64,000 bases of DNA from Escherichia coli (lineage in GTDB: Bacteria; Pseudomonadota; Gammaproteobacteria; Enterobacterales; Enterobacteriaceae), in assembly GCF_048403405.1 (NCBI RefSeq), contig NZ_CP183129.1; one strand, written 5' to 3'. How positions within the stretch are numbered: the first letter of the stretch is position 1; every line of letters starts with the position of its first letter. The notes under the pieces are model-generated. The model was not told where the DNA came from. It worked only from the letters and a program-made list of their open reading frames with translations, and ran no database searches. The position numbers and the translations under genes were made by a program. Below, piece by piece: positions 1-63,773 of the stretch.

Positions 1-116
1 ACCGTTGAGTCATACCAGCAAACCGGGATACACGTTGCCCAGTCAATAATTGATTACTTCGCAGGAAGGGAGATAAAAAACGTGTTGTGAGTTCAGCGAA
101 CGAAGATTTTAAATAC

Positions 117-150
117 AAAAAAACCGCAATTTGTGGAACACATTGCGGTT
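117..150 (-). terminator. Rho-independent terminator at the 3' end of the tRNA-fMet operon
   Basis: Inverted repeat ccgcaat / attgcgg (plus 124-130 and 143-149) followed on the minus strand by a 7-nt U run (plus-strand A run 117-123), directly downstream of the last tRNA copy. Confidence 0.55.
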
Positions 151-168
151 TATCAGCATTCTAAGTAT

Positions 169-245
<77 letters not shown>

Positions 246-279
246 TCACCGTACTGCTTTTACTTCATCAAATTTTGAT

Positions 280-356
<77 letters not shown>

Positions 357-389
357 TCACCGTACTGCTTTACTTCATCAAATTTTAAT

Positions 390-466
<77 letters not shown>

Positions 467-472
467 TCCGTG

Positions 473-520
473 GATGCGCACTATACTCCGCTCGCGTTTT
501 CATGCAACCTTTTTTTTAAC
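473..520 (-). promoter_or_regulatory. Stable-RNA type sigma70 promoter for the tRNA-fMet operon
   Basis: Minus-strand TTGCAT (plus 502-507), 16-bp spacer, TATAGT (plus 480-485), GC-rich discriminator (gcgcatcc) before the tRNA 5' end, A-tract UP-like element upstream (plus 511-519). Confidence 0.5.
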
Positions 521-674
521 CCGATCACGGATTCGGCATGATTTTGAACAAAAACAAATCACTAAAGCCTATTTTTTGTGCAAAATTTGCGTCAGGGAGA
601 GGCTGCTCATTTCATTAAACGCGGTGGTTTGTTATCTTCGTTGCGCCTTATTTTTTAACCTGAAGAAGAGAACA

Positions 675-1772
675 ATGAAAGGACGTTGGGTAAAGTACCT
701 TCTTATGGGCACGGTTGTGGCAATGCTTGCCGCCTGCTCTTCCAAACCAACCGATCGCGGACAGCAATATAAAGACGGGAAATTTACCCAGCCTTTCTCT
801 CTGGTGAACCAGCCAGATGCCGTTGGCGCGCCGATTAACGCCGGTGATTTTGCCGAGCAAATTAATCATATTCGTAATTCGTCACCGCGTCTGTATGGCA
901 ACCAGAGTAATGTTTATAACGCGGTGCAAGAGTGGCTGCGCGCAGGCGGTGATACCCGCAATATGCGCCAGTTCGGCATTGATGCCTGGCAGATGGAAGG
1001 TGCCGACAACTATGGTAACGTGCAGTTTACAGGCTATTACACGCCGGTAATTCAGGCGCGCCATACCCGCCAGGGCGAGTTCCAGTATCCGATTTACCGT
1101 ATGCCGCCAAAACGTGGTCGTTTGCCGTCTCGTGCGGAGATCTACGCGGGGGCATTGAGCGATAAATACATCCTCGCTTACAGCAACTCCCTGATGGATA
1201 ACTTCATTATGGATGTGCAGGGTAGTGGGTATATCGACTTTGGTGATGGCAGTCCGCTTAACTTTTTCAGCTATGCAGGGAAAAACGGTCATGCCTATCG
1301 CAGCATTGGTAAGGTGCTGATCGACCGTGGCGAAGTGAAAAAAGAAGATATGTCGATGCAGGCGATTCGTCACTGGGGCGAAACACACAGTGAAGCCGAG
1401 GTTCGCGAGCTGCTGGAACAGAACCCGTCTTTCGTCTTCTTTAAACCGCAATCTTTTGCACCGGTGAAAGGGGCAAGTGCGGTGCCGCTGGTTGGCCGTG
1501 CTTCTGTTGCCTCCGATCGTTCAATTATTCCGCCAGGTACTACCTTGCTGGCAGAAGTGCCGCTGCTGGATAATAACGGCAAATTTAACGGTCAGTACGA
1601 ATTGCGTCTGATGGTGGCGCTGGATGTCGGTGGCGCAATCAAAGGCCAACACTTCGATATCTATCAAGGGATCGGGCCGGAAGCCGGGCACCGCGCAGGT
1701 TGGTACAACCACTATGGACGTGTCTGGGTGCTGAAAACGGCTCCGGGCGCAGGTAACGTCTTTAGCGGCTGA
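675..1772 (+). CDS. mltA: Membrane-bound lytic murein transglycosylase A (lipoprotein)
   Basis: 365-aa product MKGRWVKYLL...NVFSG with lipobox LAACSS matches MltA. Track ORF 393..1772 runs through the tRNA gene; true start is the ATG at 675. Confidence 0.93.
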   Translation: MKGRWVKYLLMGTVVAMLAACSSKPTDRGQQYKDGKFTQPFSLVNQPDAVGAPINAGDFAEQINHIRNSSPRLYGNQSNVYNAVQEWLRAGGDTRNMRQFGIDAWQMEGADNYGNVQFTGYYTPVIQARHTRQGEFQYPIYRMPPKRGRLPSRAEIYAGALSDKYILAYSNSLMDNFIMDVQGSGYIDFGDGSPLNFFSYAGKNGHAYRSIGKVLIDRGEVKKEDMSMQAIRHWGETHSEAEVRELLEQNPSFVFFKPQSFAPVKGASAVPLVGRASVASDRSIIPPGTTLLAEVPLLDNNGKFNGQYELRLMVALDVGGAIKGQHFDIYQGIGPEAGHRAGWYNHYGRVWVLKTAPGAGNVFSG

Positions 1773-1847
1773 TGTGATATTCTGTATGCCGTTTTTACGG
1801 ATACGACAGGGTGAGGGATAACCTCGCCCTTTTTATTCTGAGGTGCT

Positions 1848-2654
1848 ATGTCTGTGGTAATTAGTGATGCATGGCGTCAGCGTTTTGGTGGCACAGCGCG
1901 TCTGTATGGTGAAAAAGCGTTGCAACTGTTTGCTGACGCGCATATTTGTGTGGTCGGTATTGGCGGTGTCGGTTCCTGGGCGGCGGAAGCGCTGGCGCGC
2001 ACAGGGATTGGCGCAATCACGCTTATCGATATGGATGATGTGTGCGTCACCAATACCAATCGGCAAATTCATGCCCTGCGCGATAACGTTGGGCTGGCAA
2101 AAGCGGAAGTTATGGCGGAGCGTATTCGCCAGATTAACCCGGAGTGCCGTGTAACGGTGGTGGATGATTTCGTGACGCCGGATAACGTAGCGCAGTATAT
2201 GAGCGTGGGTTATTCGTACGTGATTGATGCCATTGATAGTGTACGGCCCAAAGCGGCGCTGATTGCTTATTGTCGGCGCAATAAAATCCCACTGGTCACA
2301 ACCGGTGGCGCGGGTGGGCAGATTGACCCGACGCAGATTCAGGTTACCGATCTGGCGAAAACGATTCAGGACCCGCTGGCGGCGAAGTTGCGTGAGCGCC
2401 TGAAAAGCGATTTTGGCATAGTGAAAAACAGTAAAGGTAAGCTCGGCGTGGATTGCGTGTTCTCTACCGAAGCATTGGTGTACCCGCAGTCAGACGGTAC
2501 GGTGTGTGCTATGAAAGCCACGGCGGAAGGGCCGAAGCGGATGGATTGTGCATCTGGATTTGGCGCGGCGACGATGGTGACCGCCACCTTTGGTTTTGTT
2601 GCGGTTTCTCATGCGCTGAAGAAGATGATGGCGAAAGCGGCCCGTCAGGGGTAA
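1848..2654 (+). CDS. tcdA: tRNA threonylcarbamoyladenosine dehydratase (E1-like, ThiF/MoeB family)
   Basis: 268 aa; Rossmann motif VVGIGGVGSW; matches TcdA (CsdL/YgdL); ATG start with RBS. Confidence 0.9.
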   Translation: MSVVISDAWRQRFGGTARLYGEKALQLFADAHICVVGIGGVGSWAAEALARTGIGAITLIDMDDVCVTNTNRQIHALRDNVGLAKAEVMAERIRQINPECRVTVVDDFVTPDNVAQYMSVGYSYVIDAIDSVRPKAALIAYCRRNKIPLVTTGGAGGQIDPTQIQVTDLAKTIQDPLAAKLRERLKSDFGIVKNSKGKLGVDCVFSTEALVYPQSDGTVCAMKATAEGPKRMDCASGFGAATMVTATFGFVAVSHALKKMMAKAARQG

Positions 2655-2660
2655 ACAATC

Positions 2661-2694
2661 AGGTCGGATGCGACGCGAACGTCTTATCCGACCT
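2661..2694. repeat. REP (repetitive extragenic palindromic) element between convergent tcdA and csdE
   Basis: aggtcggatgcgacgcgaacgtcttatccgacct, typical REP consensus with inverted arms. Confidence 0.7.
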
Positions 2695-2704
2695 GGTGCA
2701 GTGC

Positions 2705-3148
2705 TTAAACCTGCTTCGCCACAGCGATAATCGCCTCGCTTAACGCATTCAACCCCTGGCTGCGTGAGGCGCTAAGCTGCGCACGCAATCCCAGCTCATC
2801 AAACAATGCCAGCGGCGACTGTGCCTGCAATTCGGCGGCGGTTTTCCCCTCAACGGCAGTCAACAACACCGCCAGCAGGCCGCGCACAATGCGCCCTTCG
2901 CTGTCGCCAAAGAAGTGCATTTTACCGTTTTCAGCCACGGTATATCCCAGCCAGACGCGGTTTTCGCATCCGGCAATCTCTTTAGCCTGCGCTTTTAACT
3001 CGTCTGGCAAAGCCGGAAGCTGTTTCCCCAGCATGATCAACTGGCGATATTTATCTTCCCATTGCGTCAACGGTGCGAAGGTATTGCGTAACGTTTCTGC
3101 GGTTACGGTTGTGCCGAACGGATGTCCGGCGAATTGCGGGTTTGTCAT
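2705..3148 (-). CDS. csdE: Sulfur acceptor protein CsdE (SufE-like)
   Basis: 147 aa [14 protein letters not shown]..., matches CsdE; start overlaps csdA stop. Confidence 0.92.
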
Positions 3149-4353
3149 TAATCCACCAATAATTCCAGCGCGCGGTCAACGGCATTCACCAGCGCATCCA
3201 CATCACTCTTTGTATTATATGGCGCAAAAGAGGCGCGCAGTGTGCCGGTTACGCCTAATTCTGCCAGTAGCGGCTGAGCGCAATGCTGCCCGGCGCGCAG
3301 GGCAATACCGTACTCCGCCAGCAGCGTCACCATATCGCTGTGATGAACGCCAGCAAAATCAAAGGCCAGCAGGCTGGAATCCTGGCAGCGAAATGAGCGG
3401 AAGCCAGGACGTTTTGCCAGCGCATCTTCCGCCAGCGTTGCTAAGCTACGGCTCCAGCTTTCTGCCTGGTTGATATCGTAATCTGCCAGCCATTCCAGCG
3501 CCGCGCTTAATCCTATGACACCAGCGACATTTGGCGTTCCGGCTTCCAGTTTCCACGGCGCAGATTGAGTCGTGAAGCCGTCAAAACTCACTTCGTGAAT
3601 CATTTTGCCGCCACCCAGCCAGGGTGACATCGCTTCCAGCAGTTCTGATTTGCCATACAGCACGCCGATACCCGTCGGGCCATACAGTTTGTGACCAGAG
3701 AAAGCATAGAAATCAATATCCAGTTGCTGAACATCTGCGGGGACATGCACCGCCCCCTGAGCACCATCAACCATCACCACCATCCCGGCTGAATGAGCAA
3801 AGGTAATCGCTCGCGCCAGATCCGGGCAACCGCCAGTGACGTTCGACATTTGTCCCAGAGCAAGAATTCGACTACGAGGTGTGATCAGTTCTGGCAACAA
3901 ATCGACATCCGGCAGTCGCTGCGCATTAAGCGGCAATTTCACCACTTTGGCTCCAGTTTGTTGGGCGACCATCAGCCAGGGGACGAGGTTGGCGTGGTGT
4001 TCTGCCACGCTGACAATAATCTCATCGCCCGGTTGCAGACGTGGACGCGCATAGCATTGTGCCACCATGTTGATGGATTCAGTGGTGCCGCGCGTCCAGA
4101 CGATAGTTTTGTCATCTGGTGCATTCAGTAATTGCGCCACTTTCTCTCGTGCAGCTTCATAACGCGCGGTCAGGCGTTGGGCTTCGGCAAACTGGCTGCG
4201 ATGGACGTTTCCGGCGCTCAGGCTGTAAAACTGTCGGGTGGCTTCAACCACGGCTTCAGGTTTAAGCGCGGTCGCGGCGCTGTCGAGATAGACGCCCGCA
4301 TCCTGAAGTGCGGGAAACTGGGCGCGAAACTGTGCGGGATTAAAAACGTTCAT
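3148..4353 (-). CDS. csdA: Cysteine desulfurase / sulfinate desulfinase CsdA (PLP-dependent)
   Basis: 401 aa starting [16 protein letters not shown]; PLP-lysine motif SGHKLYGP; start set at the internal ATG (4353) preceded by RBS gaggag rather than the TTG track start at 4389. Confidence 0.9.
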
Positions 4354-4788: not shown

Positions 4789-4994
4789 AAAAAAAAGCAC
4801 CGCAATTAGGCGGTGCTACATTAATCACTATGGACAGACAGGGTAAATGTACAGGAAGTGAAAAAAGGTAGCTTTGCTACCATGGTCTGAATCGCAGACC
4901 AATTGCAAACACAACAACACAACATCACAACCGTAAGCCAAAAGTTCACCAGAACACGCATTCCGATAAAACTTTTCGTTCCGGCTCAGGAAGT
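4789..4994 (-). ncRNA. gcvB: GcvB small regulatory RNA (Hfq-dependent regulator of amino-acid and peptide transporter mRNAs)
   Basis: Minus strand reads ACTTCCTGAGCCGGAACGAAAAGTTTTATCGG...GTTGTGATGTTGTGTTGTTGTGTTTG...AGCACCGCCTAATTGCGGTGCTTTTTTTT, matching E. coli gcvB including the GU-rich R1 region and terminator; divergent from gcvA. Confidence 0.9.
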
Positions 4995-23213: not shown

Positions 23214-23579
23214 GTCGACAGGGAGTCAGACAACGAAGTGAACATCAGGATGATGACACTTCTGAAGGACACACCAGGATGGTGTTTCAGGGAAAGGCTT
23301 CTGGATGAAGCGAAGAGGATGACGCAGGACGCGTTAAAGGACACCTCCAGGATGGAGAATGAGAACCGGTCAGGATGATTCGGTGGGTCAGGAAGGCCAG
23401 GGACACTTCAGGATGAAGTATCACATCGGGGTGGTGTGAGCAGGAAGCAATAGTTCAGGATGAACGATTGGCCGCAAGGCCAGAGGAAAAGTTGTCAAGG
23501 ATGAGCAGGGAGCAACAAAAGTAGCTGGAATGCTGCGAAACGAACCGGGAGCACTGTGAATACAGTGCTCCCTTTTTTT
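23214..23579 (+). ncRNA. csrB: CsrB sRNA (CsrA-sequestering RNA)
   Basis: Begins GTCGACAGGGAGTCAGACAACGAAG; at least 8 CAGGATG/AGGATG motifs plus further GGA motifs; ends with hairpin gggagcactgtgaatacagtgctccc plus 7-nt T run; located between syd and yqcC as in E. coli. Confidence 0.92.
23547..23579 (+). terminator. csrB intrinsic terminator
   Basis: Perfect hairpin gggagcactgt / acagtgctccc followed by TTTTTTT. Confidence 0.85.
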
Positions 23580-23624
23580 ATTCCTGCTATCCTTCGCGGC
23601 AGTTTTTCTTATTGAGGTTGCTTT

Positions 23625-59726: not shown

Positions 59727-60461
59727 ATGTCCAAACTCGATCTAAACGCCCTGAACGAACTGCCGAAGGTAGATCGCATTCTGGCGCTGGCGGAAACTAA
59801 CGCCGAACTGGAAAAACTGGACGCTGAAGGCCGCGTTGCTTGGGCGCTGGATAATCTGCCCGGTGAATATGTACTTTCTTCTAGCTTTGGCATTCAGGCG
59901 GCGGTGAGCCTGCATCTGGTGAATCATATTCGCCCGGATATTCCAGTGATCCTCACCGATACCGGTTATCTGTTCCCGGAAACCTACCGCTTTATTGACG
60001 AGTTAACGGACAAACTCAAGCTCAACCTGAAAGTGTACCGTGCTACCGAAAGCGCGGCCTGGCAGGAAGCACGCTACGGCAAACTGTGGGAACAGGGCGT
60101 TGAAGGCATTGAAAAGTACAATGACATCAACAAAGTCGAACCGATGAACCGGGCGCTGAAAGAACTTAACGCGCAAACCTGGTTTGCTGGCCTGCGCCGT
60201 GAACAATCCGGCAGCCGCGCCAATTTACCGGTGCTGGCAATTCAGCGTGGCGTATTTAAAGTGCTGCCGATTATCGACTGGGATAACCGAACTATTTATC
60301 AGTACCTGCAAAAACATGGCCTGAAATATCACCCATTATGGGACGAAGGATATTTATCGGTGGGCGATACCCATACAACCCGTAAATGGGAACCCGGCAT
60401 GGCGGAAGAAGAAACGCGTTTCTTTGGCTTAAAAAGGGAATGTGGGTTACACGAAGGGTAA
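59727..60461 (+). CDS. cysH: Phosphoadenosine phosphosulfate (PAPS) reductase
   Basis: 244 aa [36 protein letters not shown]...; the track ORF begins upstream inside the REP / cysI 3' end. Confidence 0.96.
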
Positions 60462-60479
60462 ATATTGCCGGATAAATTA

Positions 60480-60517
60480 AACGCCTCTGTCAGAAATGAT
60501 GGGGGCGTTTTTATTTT
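60480..60517 (+). terminator. Candidate cysH intrinsic terminator
   Basis: aacgcc...ggcgtt stem with a long loop followed by tttttatttt. Confidence 0.4.
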
Positions 60518-60725
60518 GCGAGCAGCATTCCGGCATTTAAAGGTGAACATCGCAGGGAGAATTAACAGGTATAGAATGGAGTTGGGTGCTTGAGGCTGTC
60601 TGGCGTTAAGCATTCGCGAGGTTCCAGATGGACAAAAGCCCCAGGCGATATTTCTATCAACCTGAGGCCAGCGTTCGAACCTAAGCAATTCGAATGTTAG
60701 TCTCTTCTTTGCAGGGAGGCAAGAC

Positions 60726-60878
60726 ATGCTGACAAAATATGCCCTTGTGGCAATCATCGTACTGTGTTGTACAGTACTGGGATTCACGCTGATGGTAGGC
60801 GACTCGTTGTGTGAGTTGAGTATCAGAGAACGTGGTATGGAGTTTAAGGCAGTTCTCGCTTACGAATCGAAGAAGTAG
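60726..60878 (+). CDS. Hok-family type I toxin (50-aa small membrane protein), part of a hok/sok-like locus
   Basis: [53 protein letters not shown]: N-terminal TM helix plus conserved Hok motif DSLCE...R...[11 protein letters not shown]; below the 60-aa cutoff of the ORF track; followed by hairpin cgcgggg gtaaaa ccccgcg (60885-60904) and a T run; K-12 carries a hok/sok-type locus (sokX) at this position. Confidence 0.8.
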
Positions 60879-61115
60879 CCACCACGCGGGGGTAAAACCC
60901 CGCGTATTGGATTGTGATGGTTTGGTCTCCTGCACCCTTTTTTAATTTATATTGTTTATGTAAATATTATGCCTATGTTTATTATTCATATATATTACGG
61001 ATGAAAATTATTTGATTATTCATAATGTAAATATTTTATTGAACGATATATATCACAGATAATTTTTAATATATGCGTAAATATCCTTTAAGTTTTACTG
61101 AAGGATAAAAACATT

Positions 61116-63773
61116 GTGACTTTCTTTGATTTCTGGGGAAAAACCCGACGTGGCGAGAAAGAGGGTGGTGACGACTATCACCTTCTTTGCTGGCATTCGC
61201 TGGATGTAGCCGCGATGGGCTATTTAATGGTTAAAAGCAATTGCTTCGGGCTGGCTGACTATTTTCGTCAACTAGGTTTCGCTGATACGGAGCAGGCAGC
61301 ACAATTTTTCGCCTGGTTGCTGTGCTGGCACGATACTGGAAAATTTGCCCGCTCTTTTCAGCAACTTTACCTGCACCCGCAACTCAAGGTTCCGGAAAGC
61401 TCTAGAAAAAATTACGAAAAAATCTCTCATTCAACGCTGGGTTACTGGTTGTGGCACCATTATTTAAGTGAATGCGAAGAATTGCTTCCTTCATCTTCAC
61501 TCTCTCCGCGCAAACTTAAACGGGTGATAGAGATGTGGATGCCCATGACTACCGGGCATCATGGTCGCCCGCCTGACCGTATGGATGAACTGGATAATTT
61601 TCTGCCTGAAGACAAAGCCGCCGCGCGAGATTTTCTCCTTGTAATCAAGGCACTGTTTCCTCTCATCGAGATCCCCGCATTCTGGGATGATGACGATGGC
61701 GTTGAACTTTTAAAACAACTTTCCTGGTATATCTCTGCAACTGTCGTACTTGCAGACTGGACGGGATCGTCAACGCGATTTTTTCCACGCGTCGCGCAGG
61801 CAATGGATATTGAAGATTACTGGCAGAAGGCTTTAGTTCAGGCTCAAAACGCATTAACCGTCTTTCCTCCAAAAGCACAAACCGCGCCTTTCACCGGAAT
61901 TAATACGCTGTTTCCTTTTATTGAGCACCCGACACCGTTACAGCAAAAGGTGCTGGATCTGGATATCAGCCAGCCTGGGCCACAGTTATTTATTCTGGAG
62001 GATGTGACTGGCGCAGGTAAAACAGAAGCGGCGCTTATCCTGGCCCACAGGTTGATGGCTGCGGGGAAAGCACAGGGTTTGTTTTTTGGCCTGCCAACAA
62101 TGGCAACGGCCAATGCCATGTACGATCGGCTGGTAAAAACCTGGCTTGCTTTCTATTCGCCAGAATCCCGCCCCAGCCTGGTGCTGGCACACAGTGCCCG
62201 CACATTAATGGACCGCTTTAATGAATCACTCTGGTCCGGTGATTTAGTCGGGTCAGAAGAACCGGATGAACAAGCGTTCAGTCAGGGATGTGCGGCCTGG
62301 TTTGCCGACAGTAACAAGAAGGCGTTGCTGGCTGAAATTGGCGTCGGCACGCTGGATCAGGCGATGATGGCGGTGATGCCGTTTAAACATAATAATCTGC
62401 GGCTTCTGGGACTGAGTAACAAAATCCTGCTGGCTGATGAGATCCATGCCTGTGACGCTTACATGTCGTGCATTCTTGAAGGATTGATTGAGCGGCAGGC
62501 GCGTGGCGGAAACAGCGTTATTTTGCTTTCTGCCACGTTATCTCAACAGCAGCGCGACAAACTCGTTGCTGCCTTTGCGCGTGGTGCAGAGGGTCAGCAA
62601 GAAGCTCCGTTCCTGGAAAAGGATGATTACCCCTGGCTGACGCACGTTACGAAATCGGATGTGCATTCACACCGGGTAGCAACGCGCAAAGACGTTGAGC
62701 GTAGCGTGAGCGTGGGTTGGCTTCATAGCGAACAAGAGTGTATTGCGCGTATCGAATCGGCGGTAAGTCAGGGGAAATGCATCGCCTGGATCCGGAATTC
62801 TGTCGATGATGCTATTAAAGTTCATCGTCAGTTGCTTGCCCGCGGCGTCATTCCTGCTTCCAGCCTTTCTCTGTTTCATAGCCGCTTTGCTTTTAGCGAT
62901 CGCCAGCGAATTGAAACGGAAACGCTGGCACGCTTCGGTAAAGAAGATAGCTCACAGCGTGCCGGAAAAGTCCTCATTTGTACTCAGGTCTTAGAGTCGA
63001 GCGTTGATTGCGATATGGACGAAATGATTTCCGACCTGGCCCCTGTTGATTTGCTGATCCAGCGAGCGGGGCGATTACAGCGGCATATCCGCGATATTAA
63101 TGGTCAGTTAAAGCGTGACGGAAAAGACGAGCGTTCTCCTCCTGAATTGCTGATTCTGGCCCCCGTCTGGGACGACGCTCCAGGTGACGAATGGTTCGGC
63201 AGTGCCATGCGTAACAGTGCATATGTCTATCCCGATCATGGACGAATCTGGCTGACGCAGCGTGTACTGCGTGAGCAAGGCGCGATTCAAATGCCACACG
63301 CAGCCCGCCTTCTTATTGAATCAGTCTACGGTGAGGACGTGGTAATGCCGGAAGGATTTGCCCGCAGCGAGCAGGAACAAGTGGGCAAATATTACTGCGA
63401 TCGCGCAATGGCTAAAAAGTTTGTGCTGAACTTCAGGCCCGGCTATGCCGCCAATATCAACGATTACCTCCCGGAAAAGCTGTCGACACGTCTGGCTGAG
63501 GAGTCTGTTTCCCTGTGGCTGGCTACCTGTATTGACGGTGTGGTGAAGCCTTATGCCACCGGTGCTCACGCATGGGAAATGAGCGTTGTCAGAGTGCGTC
63601 GAAGCTGGTGGAAAAAACATTGCGATGAGTTTTCTTTACTGGAAGGGGAAGCGTTCAGGCAGTGGTGCGTTGAACAGCGGCAAGATCCGGAGATGGCAAA
63701 TGTGATTTTAGTTACCGATGACGAAAGTTGCGGGTATTCGGCTAGGGAGGGATTGATTGGTAAGGTTGATTGA
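61116..63773 (+). CDS. cas3: Cas3 (type I-E CRISPR-associated HD nuclease / SF2 helicase), non-K-12 allele
   Basis: 885 aa; HD motifs (HSLDVAA, WHDTGKF), helicase motif I TGAGKTEA, motif II DEIH, motif III SATL, motif VI QRAGRLQRH; GTG start; sits directly downstream of cysH as in E. coli; N-terminal sequence differs from the K-12 Cas3 I recall (MEPFKYICHYWGKS...). Confidence 0.9.
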   Translation: MTFFDFWGKTRRGEKEGGDDYHLLCWHSLDVAAMGYLMVKSNCFGLADYFRQLGFADTEQAAQFFAWLLCWHDTGKFARSFQQLYLHPQLKVPESSRKNYEKISHSTLGYWLWHHYLSECEELLPSSSLSPRKLKRVIEMWMPMTTGHHGRPPDRMDELDNFLPEDKAAARDFLLVIKALFPLIEIPAFWDDDDGVELLKQLSWYISATVVLADWTGSSTRFFPRVAQAMDIEDYWQKALVQAQNALTVFPPKAQTAPFTGINTLFPFIEHPTPLQQKVLDLDISQPGPQLFILEDVTGAGKTEAALILAHRLMAAGKAQGLFFGLPTMATANAMYDRLVKTWLAFYSPESRPSLVLAHSARTLMDRFNESLWSGDLVGSEEPDEQAFSQGCAAWFADSNKKALLAEIGVGTLDQAMMAVMPFKHNNLRLLGLSNKILLADEIHACDAYMSCILEGLIERQARGGNSVILLSATLSQQQRDKLVAAFARGAEGQQEAPFLEKDDYPWLTHVTKSDVHSHRVATRKDVERSVSVGWLHSEQECIARIESAVSQGKCIAWIRNSVDDAIKVHRQLLARGVIPASSLSLFHSRFAFSDRQRIETETLARFGKEDSSQRAGKVLICTQVLESSVDCDMDEMISDLAPVDLLIQRAGRLQRHIRDINGQLKRDGKDERSPPELLILAPVWDDAPGDEWFGSAMRNSAYVYPDHGRIWLTQRVLREQGAIQMPHAARLLIESVYGEDVVMPEGFARSEQEQVGKYYCDRAMAKKFVLNFRPGYAANINDYLPEKLSTRLAEESVSLWLATCIDGVVKPYATGAHAWEMSVVRVRRSWWKKHCDEFSLLEGEAFRQWCVEQRQDPEMANVILVTDDESCGYSAREGLIGKVD

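Follow-up and report, generated by a model that had tools for sequence, protein, structure and literature searches.

Identity and setting of the locus

What lies between cysH and cas3 in this chromosome, and is it tied to the CRISPR-Cas genes beside it? The question arises from a 64,000-nucleotide stretch of Escherichia coli DNA (hereafter the window, meaning the whole stretch that was analysed), for which a preliminary description had placed a type I toxin-antitoxin locus of the hok/sok kind in this intergenic region and had suggested that the module may stabilise the cas locus. The hok/sok assignment was borne out by matches to Pfam and to Rfam family RF01794, by the mapping of K-12 sokX, by the pairing of tac and fbi elements and by the RefSeq label, and the absence of the locus from the list of open reading frames (ORFs) has a single cause, the shortness of its ORF. 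The locus is not new, being the known and annotated hokX/sokX type I toxin-antitoxin locus of E. coli, and the window very probably carries the uninterrupted, apparently functional form of this chromosomal system. All its parts are intact, it is an ordinary copy, and it has no tie to the neighbouring CRISPR-Cas genes.

Both the name hokX/sokX and the position beside cysH are found in published work (PMC7232551, PMC12736100, PMC3903273). Between cysH and iap a hok-5 has been described whose homologue is the hokX of E. coli B (PMC7232551); 90% of urological strains carry hok and sokX beside cysH, the rest having sokX alone in the manner of K-12 (PMC12736100); hok sok was reported in all E. coli but the carriers of cas-E2 (Almendros et al. 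2014, PMC3903273); and reads over sok_15/sokX were recorded in EHEC EDL933 (PMC5331693). A megablast search with the region matched practically every one of 5426 complete E. coli genomes, and in genomes so matched the RefSeq label between cysH and cas3 is "Hok/Gef family protein". One of them, NZ_CP128875.1, is 100% identical over the 681-bp query (60440-61120) and carries WP_000956458.1 at the hokX position.

Upstream, cysH ends at 60461 and has its own terminator, a hairpin followed by a T run, at 60479-60510 (terminator scan). Weak Rfam matches to ctRNA_p42d and Spot_42 at 60419-60519 lie on this terminator hairpin with scores below gathering, and were taken as chance. The Rfam scan at gathering scores also places other RNA genes in the window, namely three tandem tRNAs, GcvB and CsrB (172-466 on the minus strand, 4789-4994 on the minus strand and 23223-23582 on the plus strand). 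The features of hokX/sokX are as follows.

60572-60577, plus strand: putative -10 box of the hokX promoter, TAGAAT, with a weak -35, 6 nt 5' of the mRNA start
60584-60943, plus strand: predicted full-length hokX mRNA, from the 5' end GGGUGCUUGAGG to the T6 run; position 1 of the RF01794 model aligns to 60584
60584-60597, plus strand: tac-like 5' element, paired with the 3' fbi in the full-length mRNA and forming a local hairpin after removal of the 3' end
60584-60741, plus strand: leader of the hok mRNA, Rfam RF01794 ("sok")
60686 to 60628, minus strand: sokX antisense RNA, 59 nt; the K-12 ncRNA sokX (b4701) maps here with 57/59 bases identical
60664-60704, plus strand: Sok-target hairpin of the processed mRNA, loop CCUAAGCAA at 60680-60688; an inverted repeat within the RF01794 consensus structure
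60694-60722, minus strand: putative sokX promoter read from the minus-strand sequence, with TTGCCT as -35 (60717-60722, reverse-complemented) and TAACAT as -10 (60694-60699, reverse-complemented), 17 nt of spacer between them, and 60686 as +1
60694-60732, plus strand: mok-like upstream ORF of 12 codons, whose UGA stop (60730-60732) overlaps the hok start as AUGCUGA
60715-60719, plus strand: hok Shine-Dalgarno (SD) sequence GGAGG, 6 nt 5' of the ATG, read from the sequence
60726-60878, plus strand: hokX ORF, ATG start, 50 codons, a Hok/Gef membrane toxin peptide by family; identical to RefSeq WP_000956458.1
60884-60905, plus strand: GC-rich hairpin ACGCGGGG-GUAAAA-CCCCGCGU, in which 60884-60891 pairs with 60898-60905 in the folds
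60924-60937, plus strand: fbi-like 3' element GGUCUC CU GCACCC, complementary to the mRNA 5' end
60938-60943, plus strand: T6 run, the presumed transcript end, directly past fbi and 32 nt past the GC hairpin

The Hok peptide

The 50-codon ORF had been read as a Hok-family gene, and Pfam PF01848 (Hok/Gef) agrees, matching the peptide with 39.1 bits (cut-off 22; E=5.7e-10) over model positions 1-42 of 42. HokX has the Hok/Gef layout, with the usual length of about 50 residues (50 aa), a helix of hydrophobic residues at the N-terminus, the conserved LCE motif and a polar C-terminus. Alignment to the chromosomal Hok paralogs gives 78% identity to K-12 HokE, and HokX holds the residues that are invariant across HokA, C, D, E and X, which are K4, I11, V12, C14, T16, L28, C29, E30, E39 and A45. 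The NCBIfam Hok models score below their cut-offs on HokX (53 against 89 for the HokA equivalog NF007290, 39.5 against 73 for the Hok subfamily NF007279); identity with HokA is therefore ruled out, the closest paralog is HokE, and PGAP gives the generic name "Hok/Gef family protein". Judged by its sequence, HokX is a distinct paralog.

The hok mRNA and its fold-back

The leader at 60584-60741 matches the full RF01794 model (positions 1-157) with 111.7 bits (gathering 59; E=2e-26). It should be noted that this family is labelled "sok antitoxin", yet the model matches the hok-sense leader strand, and the annotated sokX lies on the opposite strand and is far shorter (59 nt); the strand of an RF01794 match should therefore not be taken as the antitoxin strand.

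The paralogs used for comparison with hokX were hokA, hokC, hokD and two copies of hokE from strain NRG857c, with coordinates from PMC7232551; hokB was left out, being a truncated pseudogene in NRG857c. The motif GGGTGC[C/T]TGA is shared by hokA, C, D, E and X and occurs once in the window. In hokA, hokC, hokD and hokE of NRG857c a -10-like box (TATAAT, TAGAAT or TAAGAT) lies 6-7 nt 5' of GGGTGC. A scan for consensus promoters and terminators reported no hok promoter, no sok promoter and no hok terminator, and we infer both promoters from identity with K-12 and conservation among the paralogs. At the other end, similarity to strains without cas genes stops just past the T run. As a side observation, the entire hokE locus of NRG857c is tandemly duplicated between ybdK and entD (502-654 and 1006-1158 of the fetched stretch), both copies encoding the same peptide.

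Complementarity between the two ends of the transcript, like that of the hok fold-back, had been noticed in part from the letters alone, and it holds up well beyond chance. The minimum free energy (MFE) fold of the hokX mRNA has -128.4 kcal/mol (z = -2.84), and for 60584-60945 the MFE and centroid structures alike have tac and fbi closing the molecule with 12 base pairs in two helices, 60584-60589 (GGGUGC) with 60932-60937 (GCACCC) and 60592-60597 (GAGGCU) with 60924-60929 (GGUCUC). Paired with the 3' untranslated region (UTR), the first 16 nt give a duplex of -21.8 kcal/mol, against -13.0 +/- 2.1 in dinucleotide shuffles, none of 500 being as strong. The best 5'/3' duplex falls at the equivalent spot, 42-63 nt past the stop codon, in hokA, hokC, hokD and hokE of NRG857c. 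Among these paralogs the duplex beats the shuffles in hokA and hokD only; for hokC and the two hokE copies it is no stronger than with shuffled 3' UTRs, as 146, 71 and 215 of 500 shuffles equal it. Within hokX itself, two alleles have a U-to-C change at 60926 that turns a G-U pair into a G-C pair, and the fbi pairing is preserved.

The folds also suggest how this closure could be relieved. With the RNA at full length, the predicted fold ties up the Sok-target region 60680-60693 in pairs with 60907-60920, while in RNA cut to about 60908-60915 the 5' end is predicted to fold locally and the hairpin 60664-60704 to form. Its loop CCUAAGCAA (60680-60688) contains the complement of the SokX 5' end and is exposed, in the predicted folds, only after truncation near 60908. 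That 3' truncation switches the mRNA structure is a thermodynamic prediction, and the predicted switch agrees with the scheme published for plasmid R1, in which 3' processing opens the closed full-length mRNA, making it at once translatable and a target of Sok (PMC9841398).

SokX and the mok-like upstream ORF

A Sok-like antisense RNA had been expected on the minus strand over the start of the ORF. Its gene is there, since K-12 sokX maps to this strand, but the location is another: the antisense covers part of the leader (60628-60686), 40-98 nt 5' of the hok ATG, and the putative promoter alone overlaps the hok SD and start region. This promoter agrees with consensus at 8 of 12 positions, the scan threshold being 9, and the 42 bases 5' of sokX on the minus strand are identical to those of K-12, where SokX is an annotated sRNA. 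SokX folds into a single-stranded 5' tail and a terminator-like hairpin followed by UUUUGU (-22.7 kcal/mol, z = -3.57).

The hokX allele of O121 strain WL1277 has lost 5 nt (60717-60721), and with them part of the hok SD and most of the putative -35 of sokX; it may be an attenuated form peculiar to this lineage. The same deletion brings the upstream ATG into frame with hok.

A search for an overlapping mok-like frame had also been proposed, and it gave a mixed answer: there is a short ORF of 12 codons whose stop overlaps the hok AUG, but no long mok-like frame overlaps hok in any of the three plus-strand frames. Two further upstream ORFs, at 60590-60700 and 60628-60684, both stop short of hok, so that the ORF at 60694 alone overlaps it. 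Its ATG sits in the 3' arm of the target hairpin, and no clear SD was found 5' of it. In hokA, hokC, hokD and hokE the ATG homologous to it shares the hok frame and gives an N-terminally extended product. The 12-codon ORF is probably the equivalent of mok and would act through termination-reinitiation, thereby coupling hok translation to the upstream start. Such a short, out-of-frame ORF is a small variant which could interest specialists in the translational coupling of type I toxin-antitoxin systems; together with the missing terminator hairpin, treated next, it is a minor variation inside a well-studied family.

The 3' UTR as an insertion target

The ORF had been described as followed by a GC hairpin and a T run. 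Both are present, but the T run does not come immediately after the hairpin, the two being separated by the 32 nt that include fbi. No local terminator hairpin precedes the T6 run: the fold of 60905-60945 has only -3.6 kcal/mol and the terminator scan is empty there. In contrast to hokX, the hokC, hokD and hokE loci of NRG857c have a separate terminator past fbi. A GC hairpin just past the stop codon is found in all the NRG857c hok loci compared.

In about 800 of the 5426 genomes homology breaks at 60900, inside this hairpin. An IS421 transposase gene stands next to the break in the two genomes examined, KK19-02 and a derivative of E. coli B, and K-12 hokE has IS186B at the homologous hairpin. 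The GC hairpin of the hokX 3' UTR is thus a recurrent hot spot for insertion of IS186/IS421, and every insertion in the hairpin parts fbi from the ORF. In strain XD35 hokX is disrupted twice, by IS150 in the leader (near 60657; 407-1776 of the fetched stretch) and by IS421 at the 3' hairpin.

Distribution and selection in E. coli

The part missing from K-12 (60729-60945, with the hok ORF) is present in 4220 of 5426 complete E. coli genomes (78%), and hokX is uninterrupted through the T run in 3417 (63%). About 800 (~15%) match partially, the sampled ones ending at 60900 in the GC hairpin. The hok ORF part is absent from about 1200 genomes (22%), K-12 included, and the sampled ones among these retain the leader and sokX only.

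Eight uninterrupted alleles were compared, those of the window and NRG857c and six sampled across the range of identity. The six are 96.4-98.3% identical in nucleotides to the window over 362 nt (96.4-100% for all eight), and 8/8 encode the identical WP_000956458.1. No frameshift or stop of the kind that would indicate a dead locus occurs among them. Seven sites of the ORF vary and all seven changes are synonymous (P ~ 4e-5, with 23% of sites being synonymous); the sole non-synonymous change seen, C15F, is in the IS-interrupted alleles of B type. The peptide appears to be under purifying selection, in a sample that is small (8) and in a gene where RNA structure may also constrain synonymous sites. 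An identical peptide in eight alleles whose ORF changes are all synonymous points to a gene that is probably active; unlike the hok loci of K-12, hokX may still be so.

Proposed mechanism

The mechanism proposed here for hokX/sokX derives from homology with plasmid R1 hok/sok (PMC9841398) and from the folding predictions. It builds on the observed family membership of the peptide and the leader, the mapping of sokX, the 5'/3' pairing, the conservation and the population frequency, and it adds the transcription ends, 3' processing, translation coupling and toxicity that this homology would imply. A weak promoter (-10 at 60572-60577) would drive a stable hok mRNA of about 360 nt from 60584. In the full-length RNA tac (60584-60597) would be paired with fbi (60924-60937) and the Sok target sequestered, so that the RNA would be neither translated nor bound by the antisense. 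Slow 3' trimming towards the GC hairpin (60884-60905) would then remove fbi, the 5' end would refold, and the target hairpin (60664-60704) would expose its loop. SokX (60686 to 60628 on the minus strand), a short and unstable RNA from a stronger promoter overlapping the hok SD, would pair with the leader, block translation and trigger decay. Were SokX lost, the 50-aa HokX (60726-60878) would be made and would damage the inner membrane.

Alternative readings and the relation to the cas genes

The weightiest alternative is that hokX is intact in structure but a silent relic, with HokX kept below a toxic level or the peptide non-toxic, as would be the case for the chromosomal hok loci of K-12; all five of these are reported inactive (Pedersen and Gerdes 1999, as cited in PMC7232551). 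We found in the literature no experiment on HokX toxicity or on the control of hokX by SokX, nor other functional data on hokX; the mok frame is shorter than in the paralogs and, unlike theirs, not in phase with hok, a dedicated terminator hairpin is missing, and loss is evidently tolerated, with about 15% of genomes interrupted and 22% without the hok ORF part. Against a relic, however, speak the intactness of promoter, tac, Sok target, SD, ORF, hairpin and fbi in the window, the identity of HokX in eight alleles that differ at up to 3.6% of nucleotides with 7/7 ORF changes synonymous, the confinement of C15F to IS-interrupted alleles, and an fbi change that keeps the pairing; repeated IS disruption, moreover, is also expected if an intact hokX is costly because it is active. 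We therefore regard a silent relic as unlikely. That chance in a stretch between genes accounts for the ORF and the complementarities has practically no probability, as the small size of the ORF is all that speaks for it, and the Pfam and Rfam matches lie above curated thresholds, the shuffle controls do not match the pairing, and the locus is conserved in thousands of genomes.

Toxin-antitoxin modules are often located in defence islands, and hokX stands next to cas3 in the window and, by its junction, in at least 2239 of 5426 genomes, which could suggest that hokX/sokX works as an addiction module keeping the neighbouring type I-E cas operon in place. This junction is, however, outnumbered by uninterrupted hokX (3417 genomes) by about 1180. 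In NRG857c, and in three of the six other uninterrupted alleles that were fetched (JNE21-009, 95-3322 and R6), cas genes are absent and uninterrupted hokX directly adjoins iap, while strains of K-12 type retain cas3 and are missing hok. A stabilising role, as first suggested, is therefore not supported; hokX is anchored to cysH rather than to cas. Nor could a module located on the cysH side impose a penalty on deletions that spare it. In the published account hok sok is present in all E. coli but cas-E2 carriers, and IS186 insertions at GC-rich sites of the region are implicated in the loss of cas-E1 by recombination that leaves hok in place (PMC3903273). Since the GC hairpin is a recurrent target of IS186/IS421, it bears on the loss of the adjacent cas genes and not on their retention; the IS hot spot of the hokX 3' UTR has, if anything, contributed to cas loss. 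Altogether, an addiction module for cas is extremely improbable.

A different link would be that HokX/SokX is an active chromosomal killer module cooperating with type I-E CRISPR-Cas, for example as an abortive-infection backstop, in which phage shut-off of host transcription would let the short-lived SokX decay and HokX/SokX fire. Read-through from the terminator-less 3' end of hokX into the cas3 promoter region, linking both, is likewise a possibility. The distribution data show only the independence of hokX from cas and lend no direct support to joint action, and we consider cooperation of this kind very unlikely.

Two observations concern the cas side of the region. In K-12 homology ends right after the hok ATG, and the start of the cas-E2-type cas3 follows about 100 nt further; as the homology ends at this ATG, the breakpoint of cas module replacement lies inside hokX. 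In the cas3 start region of the window (61073-61120) there is an extra T, with TTTT at 61094-61097 against TTT in the O157:H7, O121 and AMSHJX01 alleles. The annotated cas3 ATG of these alleles corresponds to window position 61073, and the extra T frameshifts the first ~14 codons; the long cas3 ORF of the window begins at GTG 61116 and has 885 aa. The annotation of NZ_CP128875.1, which is identical across the 681-bp query, calls its cas3 "frameshifted".

Comparison with known systems

Beyond correct annotation the significance is small, as this hok/sok paralog already has a name and a RefSeq annotation and occurs in most E. coli, and its relation to CRISPR-I has been published (PMC3903273). 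What the window offers is the ancestral, uninterrupted order of cysH, hokX/sokX and cas-E1-type cas3, in which coordinates can be assigned to every regulatory part. The nearest known system is hokX/sokX of other genomes (sokX being b4701 in K-12, hokX first noted in E. coli B), which is the same locus at the same cysH-side position, with a peptide identical to that of the window in many genomes and a K-12 sokX region identical at 57/59 bases. The uninterrupted window copy differs from that of K-12, which has only the leader and sokX part, homology stopping at the hok ATG (60728), and from the alleles of E. coli B type, which have the IS421 break at 60900 and C15F.

K-12 hokE/sokE is the closest paralog, with 78% peptide identity. 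Parts that can be aligned between hokE and hokX are the leader, the SD, the Sok-target hairpin and its extended stem, fbi (GCACC) and the GC hairpin on the 3' side; the GC hairpin of hokE, homologous to that of hokX, is a target of IS186. The upstream ATG of hokE is in frame and gives an N-terminally extended product of 62 aa, whereas in hokX a difference of 4 nt shifts it to another frame, which ends at a stop overlapping the hok AUG; hokE also has a separate terminator hairpin past fbi where hokX has the T run only.

The mok gene of plasmid R1 is a long frame (~70 codons) that overlaps hok out of frame, whereas the upstream ORF of hokX has 12 codons. The R1 hok/sok system (parB) is plasmid-borne and hokX/sokX chromosomal, and it is not obvious what post-segregational killing would mean for a copy on the chromosome. 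The two are alike in having a Hok-family peptide, a cis-antisense Sok in the leader, tac/fbi pairing and an upstream frame, and activation by 3' processing is predicted for hokX on the model of R1 (PMC9841398).
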